Assembly: GCA_035450185.1 (NCBI GenBank)
Contig: DAOTMG010000005.1
Span: forward strand, 1 to 32,000
Direction: 5' to 3'
Length of the DNA stretch: 32,000 nucleotides
Source of the DNA: Syntrophales bacterium
GTDB lineage: Bacteria; Desulfobacterota; Syntrophia; Syntrophales; UBA2192
Below are positions 13,544 through 19,960 of this stretch, one piece after another (positions within the stretch are counted from its first letter, which is position 1; each line of letters starts with the position of its first letter). The notes beneath the pieces are model-generated. The model ran no database searches, had not been told where the DNA came from, and was given only the letters and a program-made list of their open reading frames with translations. A program made the position numbers and the translations under genes.

Positions 13544-13743
13544 CAGGGCGCCGGCGATATCCCGCCCCCGCAGGGAAGCGAAGAGGGGGACCAGGCAGAC
13601 CCACGCCAGGGCCCCCTGCCCGAATTTCGGGAAGGAGAGGAAAAGGAGAAGCCCGGATACTGCGGCAAGGAGCAGCGCCTTCAGCGGACGGCCCCTTTCT
13701 CCGGCCGATGCGCGGCGGGATTCCCGGGTCTTCGATGCCCTTT

Positions 13744-14589: not shown

Positions 14590-15465
14590 TCACAATCCCC
14601 GCATGAATTCCGGTCTCAAATAGTCCGGGCGCCGTTTCGCGATCACGGCATCGAGAACCTGAAGGAGGCTCTCCCGGTCGGCCGGCAGCCTCGCCCGGAC
14701 GGGCAGGTAGTTCGAGGCGTGATTGGAGGTGAAGAAGCAGTCCGTGAAGTTCGAGGCCTCGACGATGGTGCGGAGTTCCCCCAGAAGGGCAAACACATCC
14801 GGCAGGACGAAGGTCCCGCTGCGCCAGGCCTCGTAAAGAGGTGTGCCGGCAATGAGCATGACCGTGAGGATGCCGGCGTATTCCGGGTCGATGTCCGTCA
14901 GGATCCGGGCGGTCTCCCTTGCGTGCTTCGCGCTCAGCTCGACTCCCCCGATGCCCAGGAGGGCCGTGACCGAAAGCGTGATGCCGGCCTCCTTCACCCG
15001 CCGGCCGGCCTCGACCATCTGATCATAGGTGACCCCCTTCCGAACCCTCCGGAGAACCTCCTCGCTCCCGGTCTCCACGCCCAGGTAAACGATCTTGAGC
15101 CCTTCCTCCCTCAGGGCGGCAAGTTCTTCCCTGTTTTTTCGGAGGATGCTCTTCGCATTGGCGTACGTTCCGACTCGTTCCACCCCGCCGATGTTCTCAC
15201 CGATGGACTTCAGGATCCCCAGAAGCCTCTTCTGGGGGATGATGAGGGCATCCCCGTCGCAGAGGAAGACCCGCTTCGCCGATCGCAGCCTCGTTCCGGC
15301 TTCCCGAAGATCCTCCTCGATCTCACCCTGCGAGCGGATCCTGAATCTCTTCTGCTTGTAGGCGGAGCAGAAGGTGCACCGGTTGTGGGAACAACCGACG
15401 GTCGCCTGCAGGAGCAGGCTCCGTGCCTCGCTGGGAGGACGGATGATCGTGCCTTCGTACCTCAT
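14590..15465 (-). CDS. compact radical SAM enzyme, unknown function
   Basis: CSHNRCTFCSAY (CxxxCxxC) at residues 25-32. SAM-binding-like FLCDGDAL. TIM-barrel-like YLGVETGSEEVLRRVRKG. No second Cys cluster, so no SPASM/twitch domain. 6-nt gaps to both neighbours. Confidence 0.8.
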   Translation of the reverse strand: MRYEGTIIRPPSEARSLLLQATVGCSHNRCTFCSAYKQKRFRIRSQGEIEEDLREAGTRLRSAKRVFLCDGDALIIPQKRLLGILKSIGENIGGVERVGTYANAKSILRKNREELAALREEGLKIVYLGVETGSEEVLRRVRKGVTYDQMVEAGRRVKEAGITLSVTALLGIGGVELSAKHARETARILTDIDPEYAGILTVMLIAGTPLYEAWRSGTFVLPDVFALLGELRTIVEASNFTDCFFTSNHASNYLPVRARLPADRESLLQVLDAVIAKRRPDYLRPEFMRGL

Positions 15466-15471
15466 GCCGTC

Positions 15472-15681
15472 CTAATCCAGGTTGCCGCTGTACGGGTTGA
15501 TCCTGCCATCGTGAAAACACTTGCGGCAGAAGGCTTTCGGGTCCACGTGCCCGCAGCCGTAACCCCAGAGATCGATGGTCCGGCATCCCGAGCACAGCGG
15601 GATGGCGCATCCATCACAGAGAACAACCGAGTTTTTTGTCTTGCAGACTCCGCAGAGCTCCGTTCCGTCTGTCACGATCAT
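15472..15681 (-). CDS. 69-aa Cys-rich zinc-finger-like protein (B-box-like spacing)
   Basis: Nine Cys and two His. The spacing is C10-x2-C13-x8-C22-x2-C25-x4-C30-x2-C33, then C43-x-H45 and C52-x2-C55-x-H57. GGAG SD lies 8 nt upstream of ATG 15681. Confidence 0.6.
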   Translation of the reverse strand: MIVTDGTELCGVCKTKNSVVLCDGCAIPLCSGCRTIDLWGYGCGHVDPKAFCRKCFHDGRINPYSGNLD

Positions 15682-15741: not shown

Positions 15742-15831
15742 GCTGCCCGCGTGGAGTTTTAAAAAGGTTTTTCAAGCGTAAAAAACGAGAATGGCAGACA
15801 TCTTGCAAAAAAATTTCTCGCTTCGATGTGC

Positions 15832-15858
15832 TCGAAAAAAATTTTTTCTCTTTTTCGA
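15832..15858. promoter_or_regulatory. A/T-tract inverted repeat TCGAAAAA-N11-TTTTTCGA upstream of the kamA -35 (UP-element-like or activator site)
   Basis: Read directly. It sits in an A/T-tract region running roughly 15760-15930, within otherwise GC-rich DNA. Confidence 0.3.
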
Positions 15859-15877
15859 CGTTTTTTACAAATATCAC

Positions 15878-15905
15878 TTGACATTATGCAAACATTCTTT
15901 ATAAC
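15878..15905 (+). promoter_or_regulatory. sigma70-type promoter of the kamA/ATP-grasp operon (TTGACA-16 nt-TATAAC)
   Basis: Consensus -35 TTGACA at 15878-15883 and TATAAC at 15900-15905. This leaves a leader of about 100 nt containing a 6-bp hairpin, TCGATC-acg-GATCGA (15934-15948). Confidence 0.55.
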
Positions 15906-16011
15906 GGTTCTCAACTCGAAGGAATTTTTTTCATCGATCACGGATCGAAAGAGATCGTCGTCGCAAAGATGGACACAGGGCGACCGATAAAGCAGAAAAG
16001 GAGAGCGTTGA

Positions 16012-17352
16012 ATGGAAGACAATGTCTGTCTAACCCAGGAGGCGGAGCCTCCCGGTAGACACGCCGGCCCCGCCGGTTCGGCTCTGGATGAGCTGAAGGA
16101 ACAACACACCTCCCCTTCCGTGGCAATCACCACGACCAGGAAGAACAGATCCCTGTTTCTCTTTCCCACCCGCGGCATCAGCACCTGCAAACCCAGCGCA
16201 CGGTCCAAGGCTTTTCAGAAACGCTTTTACCCCGGCATCTCGTCCGTCGAATGGAATGACTGGCAATGGCAGCTGAAGAACCGCATCACAGGCCTGGAAA
16301 CGCTCTCGCGGATGATCTGGCTCTCCGATGACGAGACCAGCACCATCATCCGACGGGGAGGCAGCATCCCCCTGAGCATCACTCCCTATTACGCCAGTCT
16401 CCTGGACGCGATGGATCCCGAACAACCCGTCCGCAGGACCGTGATCCCCCGGAGCCTCGAATTCCATCACTCCTGGGAGGAATCCGACGACCCTCTCGGC
16501 GAAGAAAGCGACAGCCCCGTTCCGGGCCTGGTCCACCGATACCCGGACCGTGTCCTCTTCCTCGTGACGAATTTCTGCTCGACCTACTGCCGGTACTGCA
16601 CCCGCTCCCGCATCCTCGACCACGGCAACGGAATCCCGCCCGGCAAGGAGAGATGGGAGCAGGCCATCGATTACATCGCATCGACGCCCCAGGTCCGCGA
16701 CGTCCTCCTGTCCGGCGGTGACCCCCTGACCATGAGCGACGAGAGCATCGACTGGCTCCTCCAGAAACTGCGGGCCATCCCCCATGTGGAGCTTTTGCGG
16801 ATCGGGACCAAGGCGCCCGTCGTGCTCCCCCAGCGCATCACGGCGAAGCTGACTTCCGTTCTGAAGCGTTACCATCCTCTGTGGATGAGCATCCACTTTA
16901 CCCACCCCGAAGAGCTCACCCCCGAGGTGGGGCAGGCCTGTGCCCGGCTCGCCGACGCCGGCATCCCCCTGGGCAGCCAGACGGTTCTCCTCGCGGGCAT
17001 CAACGACGACGTGGAGGTGATGACCCGGCTGGTCCACGGCTTGATCAAGATCCGGGTGAAGCCCTATTACCTTTACCAGTGCGATCCCATCTCGGGATCC
17101 TCGCACTTCCGGACATCGATCGAAAAAGGACTCGAGATCATCCGCGGCCTCCGCGGGCACACGACGGGTTACGCCGTCCCGACCTACGTGATCGACGCGC
17201 CGGGCGGGGGCGGGAAGATTCCCCTGCTGCCGGAGTACGTTGTCGGTCGGGACGATCATCACCTGCTCCTCCGGAACTACCAGGGGCAGCTATACCGCTA
17301 CCCGGACGTGCGACAGTCGAACGATCCCGGACCGTTCTCCCCGTGTATCTGA
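16012..17352 (+). CDS. kamA: lysine 2,3-aminomutase (KamA family radical SAM/PLP enzyme)
   Basis: WNDWQWQLKNRI, SPVPGLVHRYPDRVLFLVTNFCSTYCRYCTRS (CxxxCxxC), LLSGGDPL, GINDD, YYLYQCD, HFRTSIEKGLEII (PLP lysine) and VIDAPGGGGKIPL. It aligns colinearly with B. subtilis and C. subterminale KamA as I recall them. AGGAG SD lies 8 nt upstream of ATG 16012. Confidence 0.9.
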   Translation: MEDNVCLTQEAEPPGRHAGPAGSALDELKEQHTSPSVAITTTRKNRSLFLFPTRGISTCKPSARSKAFQKRFYPGISSVEWNDWQWQLKNRITGLETLSRMIWLSDDETSTIIRRGGSIPLSITPYYASLLDAMDPEQPVRRTVIPRSLEFHHSWEESDDPLGEESDSPVPGLVHRYPDRVLFLVTNFCSTYCRYCTRSRILDHGNGIPPGKERWEQAIDYIASTPQVRDVLLSGGDPLTMSDESIDWLLQKLRAIPHVELLRIGTKAPVVLPQRITAKLTSVLKRYHPLWMSIHFTHPEELTPEVGQACARLADAGIPLGSQTVLLAGINDDVEVMTRLVHGLIKIRVKPYYLYQCDPISGSSHFRTSIEKGLEIIRGLRGHTTGYAVPTYVIDAPGGGGKIPLLPEYVVGRDDHHLLLRNYQGQLYRYPDVRQSNDPGPFSPCI

Positions 17353-17379
17353 GGATTCAGGACGCCGGGGTGCCGAGCA

Positions 17380-18495
17380 GTGCCGGAATCGACGTGCGTG
17401 AACCCTTATCCATCAGAGAGCGTCTCTTTGCACAACCCGGCCCCCCCCGCCCGAAGACCTCGTCGTGACTCGAGGAACAGGGGCAAGACGATTGTCGGTA
17501 TCACCTACGATCTCCGGGAGGACTACCTCCGGGAGGGTTACAGTGAAGAGGAAACGGCGGAGTTCGATCAACCTTCCACGATCGACGCCATTGATCAGAC
17601 CCTGCGGTCTCTCGGATTCCGGACGGACCGCATCGGCCATGTCCGGAACCTGACGCGGCGCCTCGCGCGTGGAGAGCGCTGGGACATCGTCTTCAACATC
17701 GCCGAAGGCATGTACGGTCTCGGGAGAGAGGCGCAGGTCCCGGCCCTGCTGGACGCCTACGGCATCCCCTACACCTTCTCGGACGCGCTCGTCCTTGCCC
17801 TGACCCTCCACAAAGGGCTGACCAAGCACGTGCTGCGGGATCTCGGCATCCCGACGGCGGACTTCGCCGTCGTCACCCGTGACGCCGACGTCGAGCGTGT
17901 CCGCCTCCCCTTGCCGCTCTTCGTCAAGCCTGTCGCCGAAGGGACGGGGAAGGGCGTCACCGTGGCATCGAAGGTCCGCCACCGGCGCGAGCTGCGACGG
18001 CTGTGCCGGGAGCTGATAAAGCGTTACAGCCAACCCGTCATCGTGGAGACCTTCCTCCCCGGCCGCGAGTTTACCGTGGGGATCATCGGAACGGGAAAGG
18101 ATGCCAGGGCCGTCGCAGTGCTCGAAATCGCTCTCCGGGCCGAGGCGGAACGGGGGGTCTATTCGTACCTCAACAAGGAACACTGCGAAACCCTCGTGGA
18201 TTACTTCCTGGCCCATGATGCCGAGGCCCGGCGGGCCGCGGACGTGGCCCTCGCCGCATGGCGTGCGCTGGGTTGCCGGGATGCCGGCCGGGTGGATCTG
18301 CGATCGGACGGCAGGGGTGAACCGAACTTCATCGAGGTCAATCCCCTGGCGGGGCTCCATCCCACACACTCGGACCTGCCCATTCTGTGCAACCTGGCCG
18401 GTCTGAGCTATCGGAAGCTCATCCGCGCGATCATGGACTCGGCACTGAAGAGGATTCCCCGGACGCCGACGGGCGGTGCCGCCGGGAACATATGA
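17380..18495 (+). CDS. ATP-grasp ligase, D-Ala-D-Ala-ligase-like family (paralog 1)
   Basis: Ddl-like architecture: NIAEGMYGLGREAQVPALLDAYGIPYTFSD, LFVKPVAEGTGKGV, IVETFLPGREFTVGIIG and AGRVDLRSDGRGEPNFIEVNPLAGL (Mg/ATP site). It lacks the canonical Ddl N-terminal GGxSxE. The start is uncertain: GTG 17380, GTG 17398 or TTG 17428. Confidence 0.8.
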   Translation: MPESTCVNPYPSESVSLHNPAPPARRPRRDSRNRGKTIVGITYDLREDYLREGYSEEETAEFDQPSTIDAIDQTLRSLGFRTDRIGHVRNLTRRLARGERWDIVFNIAEGMYGLGREAQVPALLDAYGIPYTFSDALVLALTLHKGLTKHVLRDLGIPTADFAVVTRDADVERVRLPLPLFVKPVAEGTGKGVTVASKVRHRRELRRLCRELIKRYSQPVIVETFLPGREFTVGIIGTGKDARAVAVLEIALRAEAERGVYSYLNKEHCETLVDYFLAHDAEARRAADVALAAWRALGCRDAGRVDLRSDGRGEPNFIEVNPLAGLHPTHSDLPILCNLAGLSYRKLIRAIMDSALKRIPRTPTGGAAGNI

Positions 18496-18541
18496 CTTTC
18501 CGGTCCTTTCTCCGGATGGACCGGCCGATGATCACCGGATT

Positions 18542-19528
18542 ATGAGAATCGCCGTTCTCCACAATGACGTTCCGGACACAGCCCCCCCGGACGAAAAAGA
18601 CGCCCTTCTGCAGGCGGAGGCTGTCCGTTCCGCCCTGCTGACACTCGGTCACGAGACCGTCCTGATCCCCTTTCCGATGGATATCCGGGAGGTCGTCGAA
18701 AGATTCTCCCGGCAGAGGCCCGACGGGGTCTTCAACCTCGTCGAGTCCGTCGGCGGCCAGGGACGGTTCATCCACCTGGCACCGGCGGTGCTGGACGCCC
18801 TATCGACACCCTATACGGGATCGCCGACATCAGCCGTTTTTCTGACTTCCCACAAACTCGAAACCAAAAAGCGTCTCCGATCGGCCGGTCTGCCCACCCC
18901 TCCGTGGCACTCGACAGACGATGCTTCGGCCGACACCCCTGTTTCCGGCGTTCCCTTCATCATCAAATCGGTCTGGGAACACGCCTCCATCGGGCTGGGT
19001 GACGATTCCATCATCGTACCCGCGGACGCAGGGGAGTTGCAGGTTGAACTGGAAAAAAGGAAGGAACAGCTGGGCGGCGAGGCCTTTGCGGAACGCTATA
19101 TCGACGGCCGCGAGTTCAATCTCTCCCTCCTCGAAAGAAAGGAGGGGGTTTCGGTCCTGCCGCCGGCGGAGATCCTGTTCAGGGATTTCCCGGCCGACAA
19201 GCCCCGGATCGTCGGATACCGTGCGAAATGGGACGAGGGGGCGCACGAATACCACAACACCCCCCGCAGTTTCGACTTCCCCGCGGGGGACCGGGAGCTG
19301 CTCGAGAGGCTCAAGACCCTTTCGAGATCCTGCTGGGATCTCTTCGGACTCAGGGGGTATGCCCGTGTGGATTTCCGGGTGGATCGCAAAGGCGTTCCCT
19401 GGATTCTGGAAATCAACACCAATCCCTGCCTGACGCCGGACAGCGGCTTCGTGGCGGCCGCGGCGGAAAGCGGTCTTGATTATACCGATCTCATCGCCGA
19501 GATTGTTGCCGGGGCTTTTCGTCGGTGA
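18542..19528 (+). CDS. ATP-grasp ligase, D-Ala-D-Ala-ligase-like family (paralog 2)
   Basis: MRIAVLHND..., NLVESVGGQGRFIHLAPAVLDALSTPYTGS, PFIIKSVWEHASIGL, AERYIDGREFNLSLL and YARVDFRVDRKGVPWILEINTNPCL. The track start at GTG 18476 would overlap the upstream gene by 20 nt. ATG 18542 matches the family N-terminus. Confidence 0.8.
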   Translation: MRIAVLHNDVPDTAPPDEKDALLQAEAVRSALLTLGHETVLIPFPMDIREVVERFSRQRPDGVFNLVESVGGQGRFIHLAPAVLDALSTPYTGSPTSAVFLTSHKLETKKRLRSAGLPTPPWHSTDDASADTPVSGVPFIIKSVWEHASIGLGDDSIIVPADAGELQVELEKRKEQLGGEAFAERYIDGREFNLSLLERKEGVSVLPPAEILFRDFPADKPRIVGYRAKWDEGAHEYHNTPRSFDFPAGDRELLERLKTLSRSCWDLFGLRGYARVDFRVDRKGVPWILEINTNPCLTPDSGFVAAAAESGLDYTDLIAEIVAGAFRR

Positions 19529-19676
19529 AATGCCGGTTTCAAAAAAGGCGGTCGCTTCACATTCACGATCAGGAAACAGGGGGAGACTGCGTCGGGTGGG
19601 ACGACGGTCGGGGTTGACGTCCCGAAAGGGTATTTCGAGGTCTTTCTCTTCGATGGCGCAGACGCCTGTGACACCC

Positions 19677-19868
19677 TCAGGGGCCGGTGTACTTCAGTTC
19701 GTTGCCGAGATCGTTTTTTTCAGTGATCACGCCATCGGGACTGTCGATCTCGAAATGATACGCCGTGATGAATCCGTCCGATCTCAATTTTTTGCCGATC
19801 GCCAGAAGAATACGCTGGGCATCCGTGGGGGTCGCCGCCAGCACATCCAGCTGCATTGTCGCTTTCAT
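19677..19868 (-). CDS. 63-aa hypothetical protein
   Basis: MKATMQLDVLAATPTDAQRILLAIGKKLRSDGFITAYHFEIDSPDGVITEKNDLGNELKYTGP. GC-rich third positions match neighbouring genes. No family recognised. The track start at 19913 was trimmed to ATG 19868. Confidence 0.45.
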   Translation of the reverse strand: MKATMQLDVLAATPTDAQRILLAIGKKLRSDGFITAYHFEIDSPDGVITEKNDLGNELKYTGP

Positions 19869-19920
19869 GAAAAGGTTCCCCCGTAAATGATTCGCCGGGC
19901 CGACAACGGGCAAAGCGCAA

Positions 19921-19950
19921 AAGGGTTTCGGTCCGCGGACCGAAACCCTT
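19921..19950. terminator. perfect 30-nt palindrome hairpin, terminator after the tRNA-Val/tRNA-Asp pair
   Basis: AAGGGTTTCGGTCCG|CGGACCGAAACCCTT. It lies 10 nt downstream of tRNA-Asp on the minus strand. T-rich flanks on both sides (TTGCGCTTTG on minus, TGTTATTTTC on plus). Confidence 0.55.
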
Positions 19951-19960
19951 TGTTATTTTC

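Follow-up and report, generated by a model that had tools for sequence, protein, structure and literature searches.

A three-gene operon was examined in the window, by which we mean the whole 32-kb stretch of DNA analysed here (positions 1 to 32,000 of contig DAOTMG010000005.1, from a Syntrophales bacterium). It encodes a lysine 2,3-aminomutase-type enzyme (KamA) followed by two ATP-grasp ligases of the D-Ala-D-Ala ligase (Ddl) fold, which are called AG1 and AG2 in the following:

16012 to 17352, plus strand: kamA, lysine 2,3-aminomutase-type radical SAM/pyridoxal phosphate (PLP) enzyme, 446 aa
17380 to 18495, plus strand: AG1, Ddl-fold ATP-grasp ligase, near-universal partner of kamA
18542 to 19528, plus strand: AG2, second Ddl-fold ATP-grasp ligase, paralogue of AG1

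In the open reading frame (ORF) list of the window all three are co-directional, and they are separated by 27 nt (from the kamA stop at 17352 to the GTG at 17380) and 46 nt (from the AG1 stop at 18495 to the ATG at 18542), which matches the coordinates and the gaps of at most about 46 nt given in an initial annotation of this DNA. A Shine-Dalgarno sequence, AAAGGAG, lies upstream of the kamA ATG. The Pfam domains found are Radical_SAM and LAM_C in KamA and Dala_Dala_lig_C in each of the two ligases.

KamA aligns with the lysine 2,3-aminomutase (LAM) of C. subterminale (PDB ID: 2A5H) over about 360 residues (72–432) with about 65% sequence identity (E 4e-140). The radical SAM cluster CSTYCRYC, already recognized in the initial annotation, occupies residues 189–196, and its three cysteines (C189, C193 and C196) are invariant in 65 orthologues from related loci. 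Equally invariant in this set are R198, D358 (in YQCD), D395 (in VIDAP) and K402 (in VIDAPGGGGK), which align with Arg134, Asp293, Asp330 and Lys337 of LAM, respectively. We take Arg134 to bind the carboxylate of lysine, Asp293 and Asp330 its epsilon-amine, and Lys337 the PLP cofactor. The initial annotation had placed the PLP lysine in an EKG motif (371–373), which is wrong since the residue aligned with Lys337 is K402. Of the two aspartate motifs it had named, YQCD is right, but GINDD (329–333) aligns with GVNDC at positions 264–268 of LAM, and the true second aspartate is D395. Both true positions are conserved, and its conclusion that the product should be beta-lysine holds.

Among the NCBIfam models, the AblA equivalog TIGR03820 is the top-ranked match of KamA, with a score (498.4 bits) just under its cut-off (525.4), while the broader KamA family TIGR00238 is passed with 379.9 bits (cut-off 199.2). 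The models for the other mutase types are all below their cut-offs: glutamate (435 vs 650 bits), arginine (402 vs 600) and EpmB (256.1 vs 369.3). KamA thus does not group with EpmB; such a grouping is what the initial annotation had regarded as damaging to its interpretation. The subfamily differs from the full-length clostridial architecture in having an N-terminal extension of about 60–70 aa that is absent from clostridial LAM, and a tail of about 39 aa after GGGGK where LAM has 79, so that its C-terminus is about 40 aa shorter. The position of Cys268, which together with C-terminal cysteines presumably forms the inter-subunit zinc site of LAM, is occupied by Asp, Asn or Ser in the 65 orthologues and never by a cysteine. 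The prediction that KamA turns free L-lysine into beta-lysine by a radical SAM/PLP mechanism is well supported. As a separate observation, the N-terminal extension (16012–16230, residues 1–73) carries a short recurring motif, E-x-E-P-P-G, which the window shares with loci L011, L023 and L039.

With 26% identity to each other and an hhalign probability of 99.9, AG1 and AG2 are paralogues, and the closest matches of both, in sequence as well as in structure, are D-Ala-D-Ala ligases, at just 23–28% identity. Against the NCBIfam Ddl model NF002378 they score 157.6 and 123.5 bits, respectively, where the cut-off is 243, and against TIGR01205 they reach 123.1 and 101.2 bits (cut-off 245.65). With their AlphaFold models, which are of high confidence (pLDDT 82 for AG1 and 90.5 for AG2), a PDB fold search returned Ddl as the nearest solved fold (TM 0.65–0.8) and matched no other fold. 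In public records such ligases are named “D-alanine-D-alanine ligase” or “ATP-grasp domain-containing protein” throughout.

Their active sites were compared with that of E. coli DdlB (sequence checked against PDB ID: 2DLN), with conservation counted in 54 AG1 and 57 AG2 sequences. The equivalents of K97, K144, E180, E187, K215, R255, D257, E270 and N272, which serve ATP and Mg binding and catalysis, are invariant in both ligases. The pocket residues are changed. In AG1, S150 is replaced by Thr, Y216 by a gap and L282 by an invariant Asp; in AG2, the replacements are Ala, Trp and an invariant Gly, respectively, and G276 is exchanged for Cys as well. At position S281 the serine is invariant in AG1, and in AG2 it is still the most frequent residue (34/57). 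Since the ATP, Mg and catalytic residues are invariant and those of the pocket differ, AG1 and AG2 are expected to be active ligases that form acyl-phosphates but do not use D-Ala as substrate, and the scores and replacements bear out the non-Ddl reading of the initial annotation. The canonical GGxSxE motif, which contains E15 of DdlB and had been reported as missing from both proteins, is only partly so: the loop has lost its GGxS part, while nearby there is still an invariant Glu (E61 in AG1 and E18 in AG2). In the N-terminal substrate region of AG1, the acidic residues D44, E57, E61 and D63 are all invariant; together with the Asp at the L282 position, this fits cationic substrates such as beta-lysine.

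The start of AG1 is uncertain, since residues 1–34 are predicted to be disordered and the homologues begin near residue 38; the candidates are the GTG at 17380 and the TTG at 17428, and the conserved core runs from about 17485. In the same region (17380–17490), the homologues open with MK[IV]GITYDL, and the codon of the window at that place is ATT (I38), with a strong GAGGAA Shine-Dalgarno sequence about 10 nt before it. As ATT is not a standard start, AG1 is annotated with a 34-residue disordered leader beginning at the upstream GTG or TTG. AG2 has an alternative start, a GTG at 18476.

A scan of one genome per species gave 283 relatives of AG1, and the best 80 of these were used for phyla and identities. 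These 80 show 57–82% identity across phyla and come from Desulfobacterota (Syntrophia and others), Myxococcota, Moduliflexota (KSB3), Bacteroidota, Verrucomicrobiota, Planctomycetota, Spirochaetota, Fibrobacterota, Bacillota, Omnitrophota, WOR-3 and others. An exhaustive search for AG1 at E <= 1e-30 matched 785 clusters at 50% identity. Gene order was compared in 82 distinct loci from at least 12 phyla, where kamA lies directly upstream of AG1 in 77 and AG2 comes next in 69. Many of these operons contain a further gene, for an acetyltransferase of the GNAT type, and some also one of the histone-deacetylase family:

KamA-AG1-AG2-GNAT: 45 of 82 loci
KamA-AG1-AG2-GNAT with a histone-deacetylase-family gene: 14 of 82 loci
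KamA-AG1 only: 11 of 82 loci
KamA-AG1-AG2, the type of the window: 7 of 82 loci
Other architectures, mostly cut by contig ends: 5 of 82 loci

Fusion proteins join neighbouring members of this series, namely KamA with AG1 (P0273), AG1 with AG2 (many, e.g. P0264 and P0265), AG2 with GNAT (P0147, P0178, P0187 and P0211), and the deacetylase with a GNAT (at locus L060). By this chain of adjacency and fusions, KamA, AG1, AG2, GNAT and the deacetylase can be placed in one pathway. Clustering of the ORFs in the 82 loci showed no conserved neighbours beyond GNAT, the deacetylase and a sigma-54 activator gene, the last of which is beside the operon in 14 loci; the remaining recurrent neighbours reflect synteny inside Smithella/Syntrophaceae only. 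Cultured carriers of the operon include at least Desulfovibrio mangrovi and D. psychrotolerans. Overall, the operon is shared by anaerobes belonging to more than ten bacterial phyla, and the possibility raised in the initial annotation that the adjacency might be missing in related genomes is answered by these counts and fusions.

The GNAT gene follows AG2 in 60 of the 82 loci and never occurs without AG2. Its product has about 160 aa and an acetyl-CoA motif, and the only NCBIfam matches are to RimI-like or general GNAT models. It belongs to the family of PDB ID: 2R7H, which was deposited as a “putative D-alanine N-acetyltransferase”. Protein P0414 (locus L089, 9001–9531) is 99% identical to the 2R7H chain and is encoded in an operon of the form sigma-54 activator-KamA-AG1-AG2-GNAT, on a metagenome contig that we assume to come from Oleidesulfovibrio alaskensis; Desulfovibrio mangrovi (L088) likewise has a five-gene form including the sigma-54 activator. 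From this identity and context, the orphan structural-genomics entry 2R7H is identified as the acetyltransferase of the kamA-AG1-AG2 operon, and it seems that nothing but the adjacent “Ddl” genes, themselves mis-annotated, gave it its deposited name. The deacetylase, found in 14 of the 82 loci, consists of an N-terminal GNAT-like domain and a catalytic domain which is closest to the acetylpolyamine amidohydrolases 6PHR and 3Q9B (E 1e-70 to 1e-64). From this kinship, its probable substrate is a small molecule with an N-acetylated aliphatic amine.

No match to the GNAT was found anywhere in the window, nor was any pseudogene remnant of it. Compared with its close relative L005 (KamA 90% identical), blastn homology ends at 19508 and resumes at 19945, and the interval is occupied by unrelated sequence:

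19509 to 19944, no strand assigned: segment of about 435 nt at the position of the GNAT of L005, non-homologous to GNAT, with a 63-aa minus-strand ORF at 19677–19868

The GNAT-less arrangement is shared by the relatives L085–L087, and by this comparison the lineage of the window is judged to have lost the GNAT. The trio is thus a reduced form of an operon that usually has four or five genes, a point absent from the initial annotation. The 63-aa ORF itself has no Pfam match; it is probably real, because the same small gene is called in L085.

Taken together, we consider it about 60% probable that the operon serves the biosynthesis of a small beta-lysine-containing amide compound. In the proposed pathway, KamA would first convert free L-lysine to beta-lysine. 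AG1 would then use ATP to form an acyl-phosphate and, from it, an amide bond involving beta-lysine; we infer the use of beta-lysine by AG1 from its near-invariable adjacency to kamA and from the KamA-AG1 fusion. AG2 would make a second amide bond, leading to a product of three units. In most genomes the GNAT beside or fused to AG2 would acetylate an amine that is still free. The epsilon-amine of the beta-lysine unit is the most likely one, because the partner deacetylase resembles enzymes acting on acetylated aminoalkyl chains. In some genomes the acetylpolyamine-amidohydrolase-like enzyme could take the acetyl group off again. As the lineage of the window has neither GNAT nor deacetylase at the locus, its product would keep a free amine, unless an enzyme encoded elsewhere acetylates it. 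The product is probably a nitrogen-rich cytoplasmic solute, which is the weakest step of this reasoning, and the closest parallels to such a solute are N-epsilon-acetyl-beta-lysine and N-acetylglutaminylglutamine amide. The overall interpretation of the initial annotation, in which the ligases join beta-lysine to another unit, is supported, and, as far as the window and the related loci show, none of the findings that it had named as contradicting it was obtained; oligomerization and addition to a protein C-terminus, which it had also offered, are possible but less likely options.

Several known systems are close to the operon. The AblA/AblB system makes the compatible solute N-epsilon-acetyl-beta-lysine in methanogens and some bacteria. 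The operon resembles it in having a lysine 2,3-aminomutase of the same subfamily (AblA being the best NCBIfam match) and, in most relatives, an acetyl-CoA-type GNAT in the same operon as the mutase. It differs in that KamA falls just short of the AblA equivalog cut-off, in the two ATP-grasp ligase genes between mutase and acetyltransferase, and in the acetyltransferase itself, which gives no AblB-family match but is RimI-like and of the 2R7H family, and which the window does not have. With the Ddl enzymes (DdlA/DdlB and VanA), AG1 and AG2 share the fold, the ATP, Mg and catalytic residues and presumably the acyl-phosphate mechanism, and they differ from them in the low identity, the scores below cut-off, the changed pocket, the rebuilt GGxSxE loop, the linkage to kamA and the absence of a cell-wall (dcw) context. 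The N-acetylglutaminylglutamine synthetase Ngg, of the NAGGN osmolyte pathway, is a GNAT domain fused to an ATP-grasp domain. By its description it is similar in bringing an acetyltransferase and an ATP-grasp ligase together (here sometimes as an AG2-GNAT fusion) for the production of an N-acetylated small peptide solute, while in our case beta-lysine is supplied by a radical SAM mutase, there are two ligases, and there is no AsnO-type amidotransferase. In Bacillus subtilis, a beta-lysine acetyltransferase adjoins kamA in kamA-yodP(-yodQRST). A KamA-type mutase is likewise part of that operon and of the lysine fermentation of clostridia (kamA, kamDE, kdd, kce), but they are sporulation or catabolic pathways without ATP-consuming ligases, and none of their other genes (including kamDE, kdd and kce) is present here.

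Several points weigh against the proposal of a small amide solute. The product is a prediction, the genes point to no particular co-substrate, and beta-lysine could be either the acyl donor or the amine acceptor. Among loci with untruncated flanks, AG1 occurs without kamA within 8 kb upstream at L015 and L059; it stands alone at L071, where the contig is cut. Many of the source habitats are freshwater sediments, peat and digesters, which count against a classical salt-stress osmolyte. Finally, the deacetylase is similar to polyamine deacetylases, and a cation of the polyamine kind would explain this no less well than a neutral solute.

The last point leads to a serious alternative, although one that we hold to be rather improbable, namely that the product is a polyamine-like polycation. 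AG1 and AG2 would then couple the carboxylate of beta-lysine to putrescine, cadaverine, spermidine or another beta-lysine, with an ATP-grasp enzyme forming an amide to an amine as in glutathionylspermidine synthetase, and the GNAT and the amidohydrolase would be an acetylation/deacetylation homeostasis pair as known for polyamines. The operon deacetylase paired with a GNAT does resemble the combination of SpeG/SSAT-type GNAT and acetylpolyamine amidohydrolase, its nearest relatives being acetylpolyamine amidohydrolases, and the invariant Asp of AG1 at DdlB L282 together with the acidic cluster of its first-substrate region would suit such a product. So would the KamA-AG1-only loci, whose existence implies that a single ligation already yields a useful product. 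The tight coupling of the GNAT to AG2, sometimes as a fusion, is however more typical of a biosynthetic than of a detoxification step, and the conservation of S281, the serine which holds the carboxylate of the second substrate in DdlB, suggests an amino acid rather than a plain diamine as the nucleophile. The system is also unlike polyamine acetylation systems in that the deacetylase has an extra N-terminal GNAT-like domain, the amine unit would be derived from beta-lysine, and the window is without the module.

It is unlikely that the ligases form a template-independent oligomerizing or macromolecule-modifying system, making an oligo-beta-lysine polycation or attaching beta-lysine to a protein or envelope component, with a charge switched by GNAT and deacetylase; such a role would mean that Ddl-fold enzymes, in anaerobes from over ten phyla, have an activity like that of cyanophycin synthetase or RimK. 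We assign a low probability to macromolecule modification in the narrower sense, i.e. beta-lysylation of elongation factor P (EF-P) or another protein, an oligo-beta-lysine polymer, or an altered peptidoglycan stem or bridge. Precedents for it are known: cell-wall precursors are substrates of ATP-grasp enzymes, including those of the Ddl fold, some ATP-grasp enzymes modify proteins or polymers (RimK, cyanophycin synthetase), and EF-P beta-lysylation employs a KamA paralogue. The EpmB/EpmA set for EF-P beta-lysylation is nonetheless not found here: KamA lies far under the EpmB cut-off and nearer to AblA/LAM, efp has no match in any locus or in the window, and a tRNA-synthetase-like gene of the epmA type is missing from the neighbourhoods carrying Pfam labels. 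Also against it, genes of the mur, dcw or carrier-protein kind are not among the recurrent neighbours of the operon, the scores of both ligases are under the Ddl cut-offs and their D-Ala pocket residues are missing, and the deacetylase resembles small-molecule rather than protein deacetylases.

A specialized metabolite, such as a beta-lysine-containing antibiotic or signalling peptide, is just as poor a candidate. Pairs of aminomutase and ligase are known from antibiotic pathways, e.g. that of blasticidin S, and the patchy distribution over phyla suggests horizontal transfer. This has to be weighed against the very high sequence conservation (57–69% for AG1 between phyla), the invariant gene order, the absence of recurring exporter, resistance or tailoring genes beside the operon in the 82 loci, and its position amid housekeeping genes in the window. 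That the ligases are housekeeping D-Ala-D-Ala ligases lying by chance beside a kamA for lysine fermentation or an osmolyte is barely credible: the public annotation and the best Pfam, NCBIfam and PDB matches all name Ddl, but the reading is contradicted by the bit scores, the replaced S150, Y216 and L282, a kamA linkage kept across phyla and including fusions, and the absence of kamDE, kdd or kce nearby. Apart from these readings, a role in anti-phage defence has no support, since neither KamA nor AG1 nor AG2 matches any PADLOC model.

Full-text searches of the available literature library found no paper describing the kamA-AG1-AG2 cluster, the matches being instead to AblAB osmolyte predictions and to unrelated natural products. 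The enzyme families and the logic of mutase, ligase and acetyltransferase are known, and it is the combination and its product that appear to be undescribed. If the proposal of a small beta-lysine amide is right, thousands of public “D-alanine--D-alanine ligase” proteins would be re-assigned to another pathway, and such annotations feed the counts of cell-wall and vancomycin-resistance genes made from metagenomes. The orphan structure 2R7H would gain a pathway, and syntrophs, sulfate reducers, Bacteroidota, Planctomycetota, Spirochaetota and candidate phyla, groups which dominate anoxic sediments and digesters, a new beta-lysine-derived metabolite. As the operon is compact (three to five genes) and present in cultured species, and the product of its first step is predictable, the question is directly testable.

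Two promoter-like elements precede kamA in the window, and a hairpin follows the operon:

15792 to 15807, plus strand: putative sigma-54-type element, TGGCAG-ACATC-TTGCA (spacing of GG and GC 12 nt), located 205 nt before the kamA ATG
15878 to 15905, plus strand: sigma-70-like promoter, TTGACA, 16-nt spacer, TATAAC, with an A/T tract on its 5' side; read from the sequence, and kept in L005
19920 to 19951, plus strand: candidate terminator, a GC-rich hairpin followed by a T-rich tail; consensus match only

The initial annotation had described a promoter with a consensus -35 and an A/T tract, and this part stands, as the hexamer TTGACA (15878–15883) is the consensus and has an A/T tract upstream. 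The -10 is imperfect and follows a 16-nt spacer; a strict promoter scan of the kamA upstream region reported no sigma-70 site, because TATAAC lacks the final T. The sigma-54-type element lies about 85 nt upstream of TTGACA, just before the point at which the initially annotated segment began, and is kept in the close relatives L005 and L085. Near-consensus sigma-54 elements are also present upstream of kamA in the Desulfovibrionaceae loci L088 (5457–5472, Desulfovibrio mangrovi) and L089 (5488–5503, the genome of 2R7H), where a gene for a response-regulator-type sigma-54 activator adjoins the operon and where palindromes with the pattern CGGAACAT..ATGTTCCG lie upstream. The window has no sigma-54 activator gene nearby and no palindrome of the CGGAACAT..ATGTTCCG type.

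The strict sigma-54 motif was found upstream of kamA in 10 of 79 loci and in 4 of 79 on the opposite strand. A sigma-54 promoter as a general feature of the operon was rejected on these counts, from which the predicted sigma-54 regulation is lineage-specific; in some lineages, including that of the window, such a promoter probably drives expression. A published survey of sigma-54 lists lysine 2,3-aminomutase solely for Bacilli, and the paper on the sigma-54 regulome of Desulfovibrio vulgaris, with its supplements, makes no mention of kamA, AG1 or AG2 genes. At the other end of the operon, it is possible that the hairpin at 19920–19951 ends the transcript.

The surroundings of the operon in the window are housekeeping genes. 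One side carries dtd, two M16 peptidases, an M20 peptidase, phoH, ybeY, a lytic transglycosylase, prfB, lnt, corC and a radical SAM gene, and the other tRNA-Asp, tRNA-Val, lon, clpX, clpP, tig and carB. No dcw genes are found in the window, as the initial annotation had noted, and there is no dcw context in the 82 related loci.

Some of the flanking genes have features of their own. The prfB gene opens with a short ORF, MFEDLPGKIKEIRKKLETLRGYL, which ends in CTT TGA (window 12175–12104, minus strand), and the main frame of release factor 2 goes on in +1, as usual for this factor with its programmed frameshift. A 69-aa cysteine-rich ORF (MIVTDGTELCGVCKTKNSVVLCDGCAIPLCSGCRT...) at about 15472–15681 on the minus strand lies directly upstream of the radical SAM gene (14590–15465), to which it is apparently translationally coupled, and the pair is also called in L085–L087. 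Candidate roles for its product are those of a zinc-ribbon partner and of a peptide substrate of the radical SAM enzyme. In lnt, the frame is open and homologous to that of relatives for about 60 codons (13544–13741, minus strand) upstream of the first ATG, GTG or TTG (13543), and the called length is 518 aa in the relative compared to 455 in the window, so the true start of lnt may be non-canonical or mis-set.

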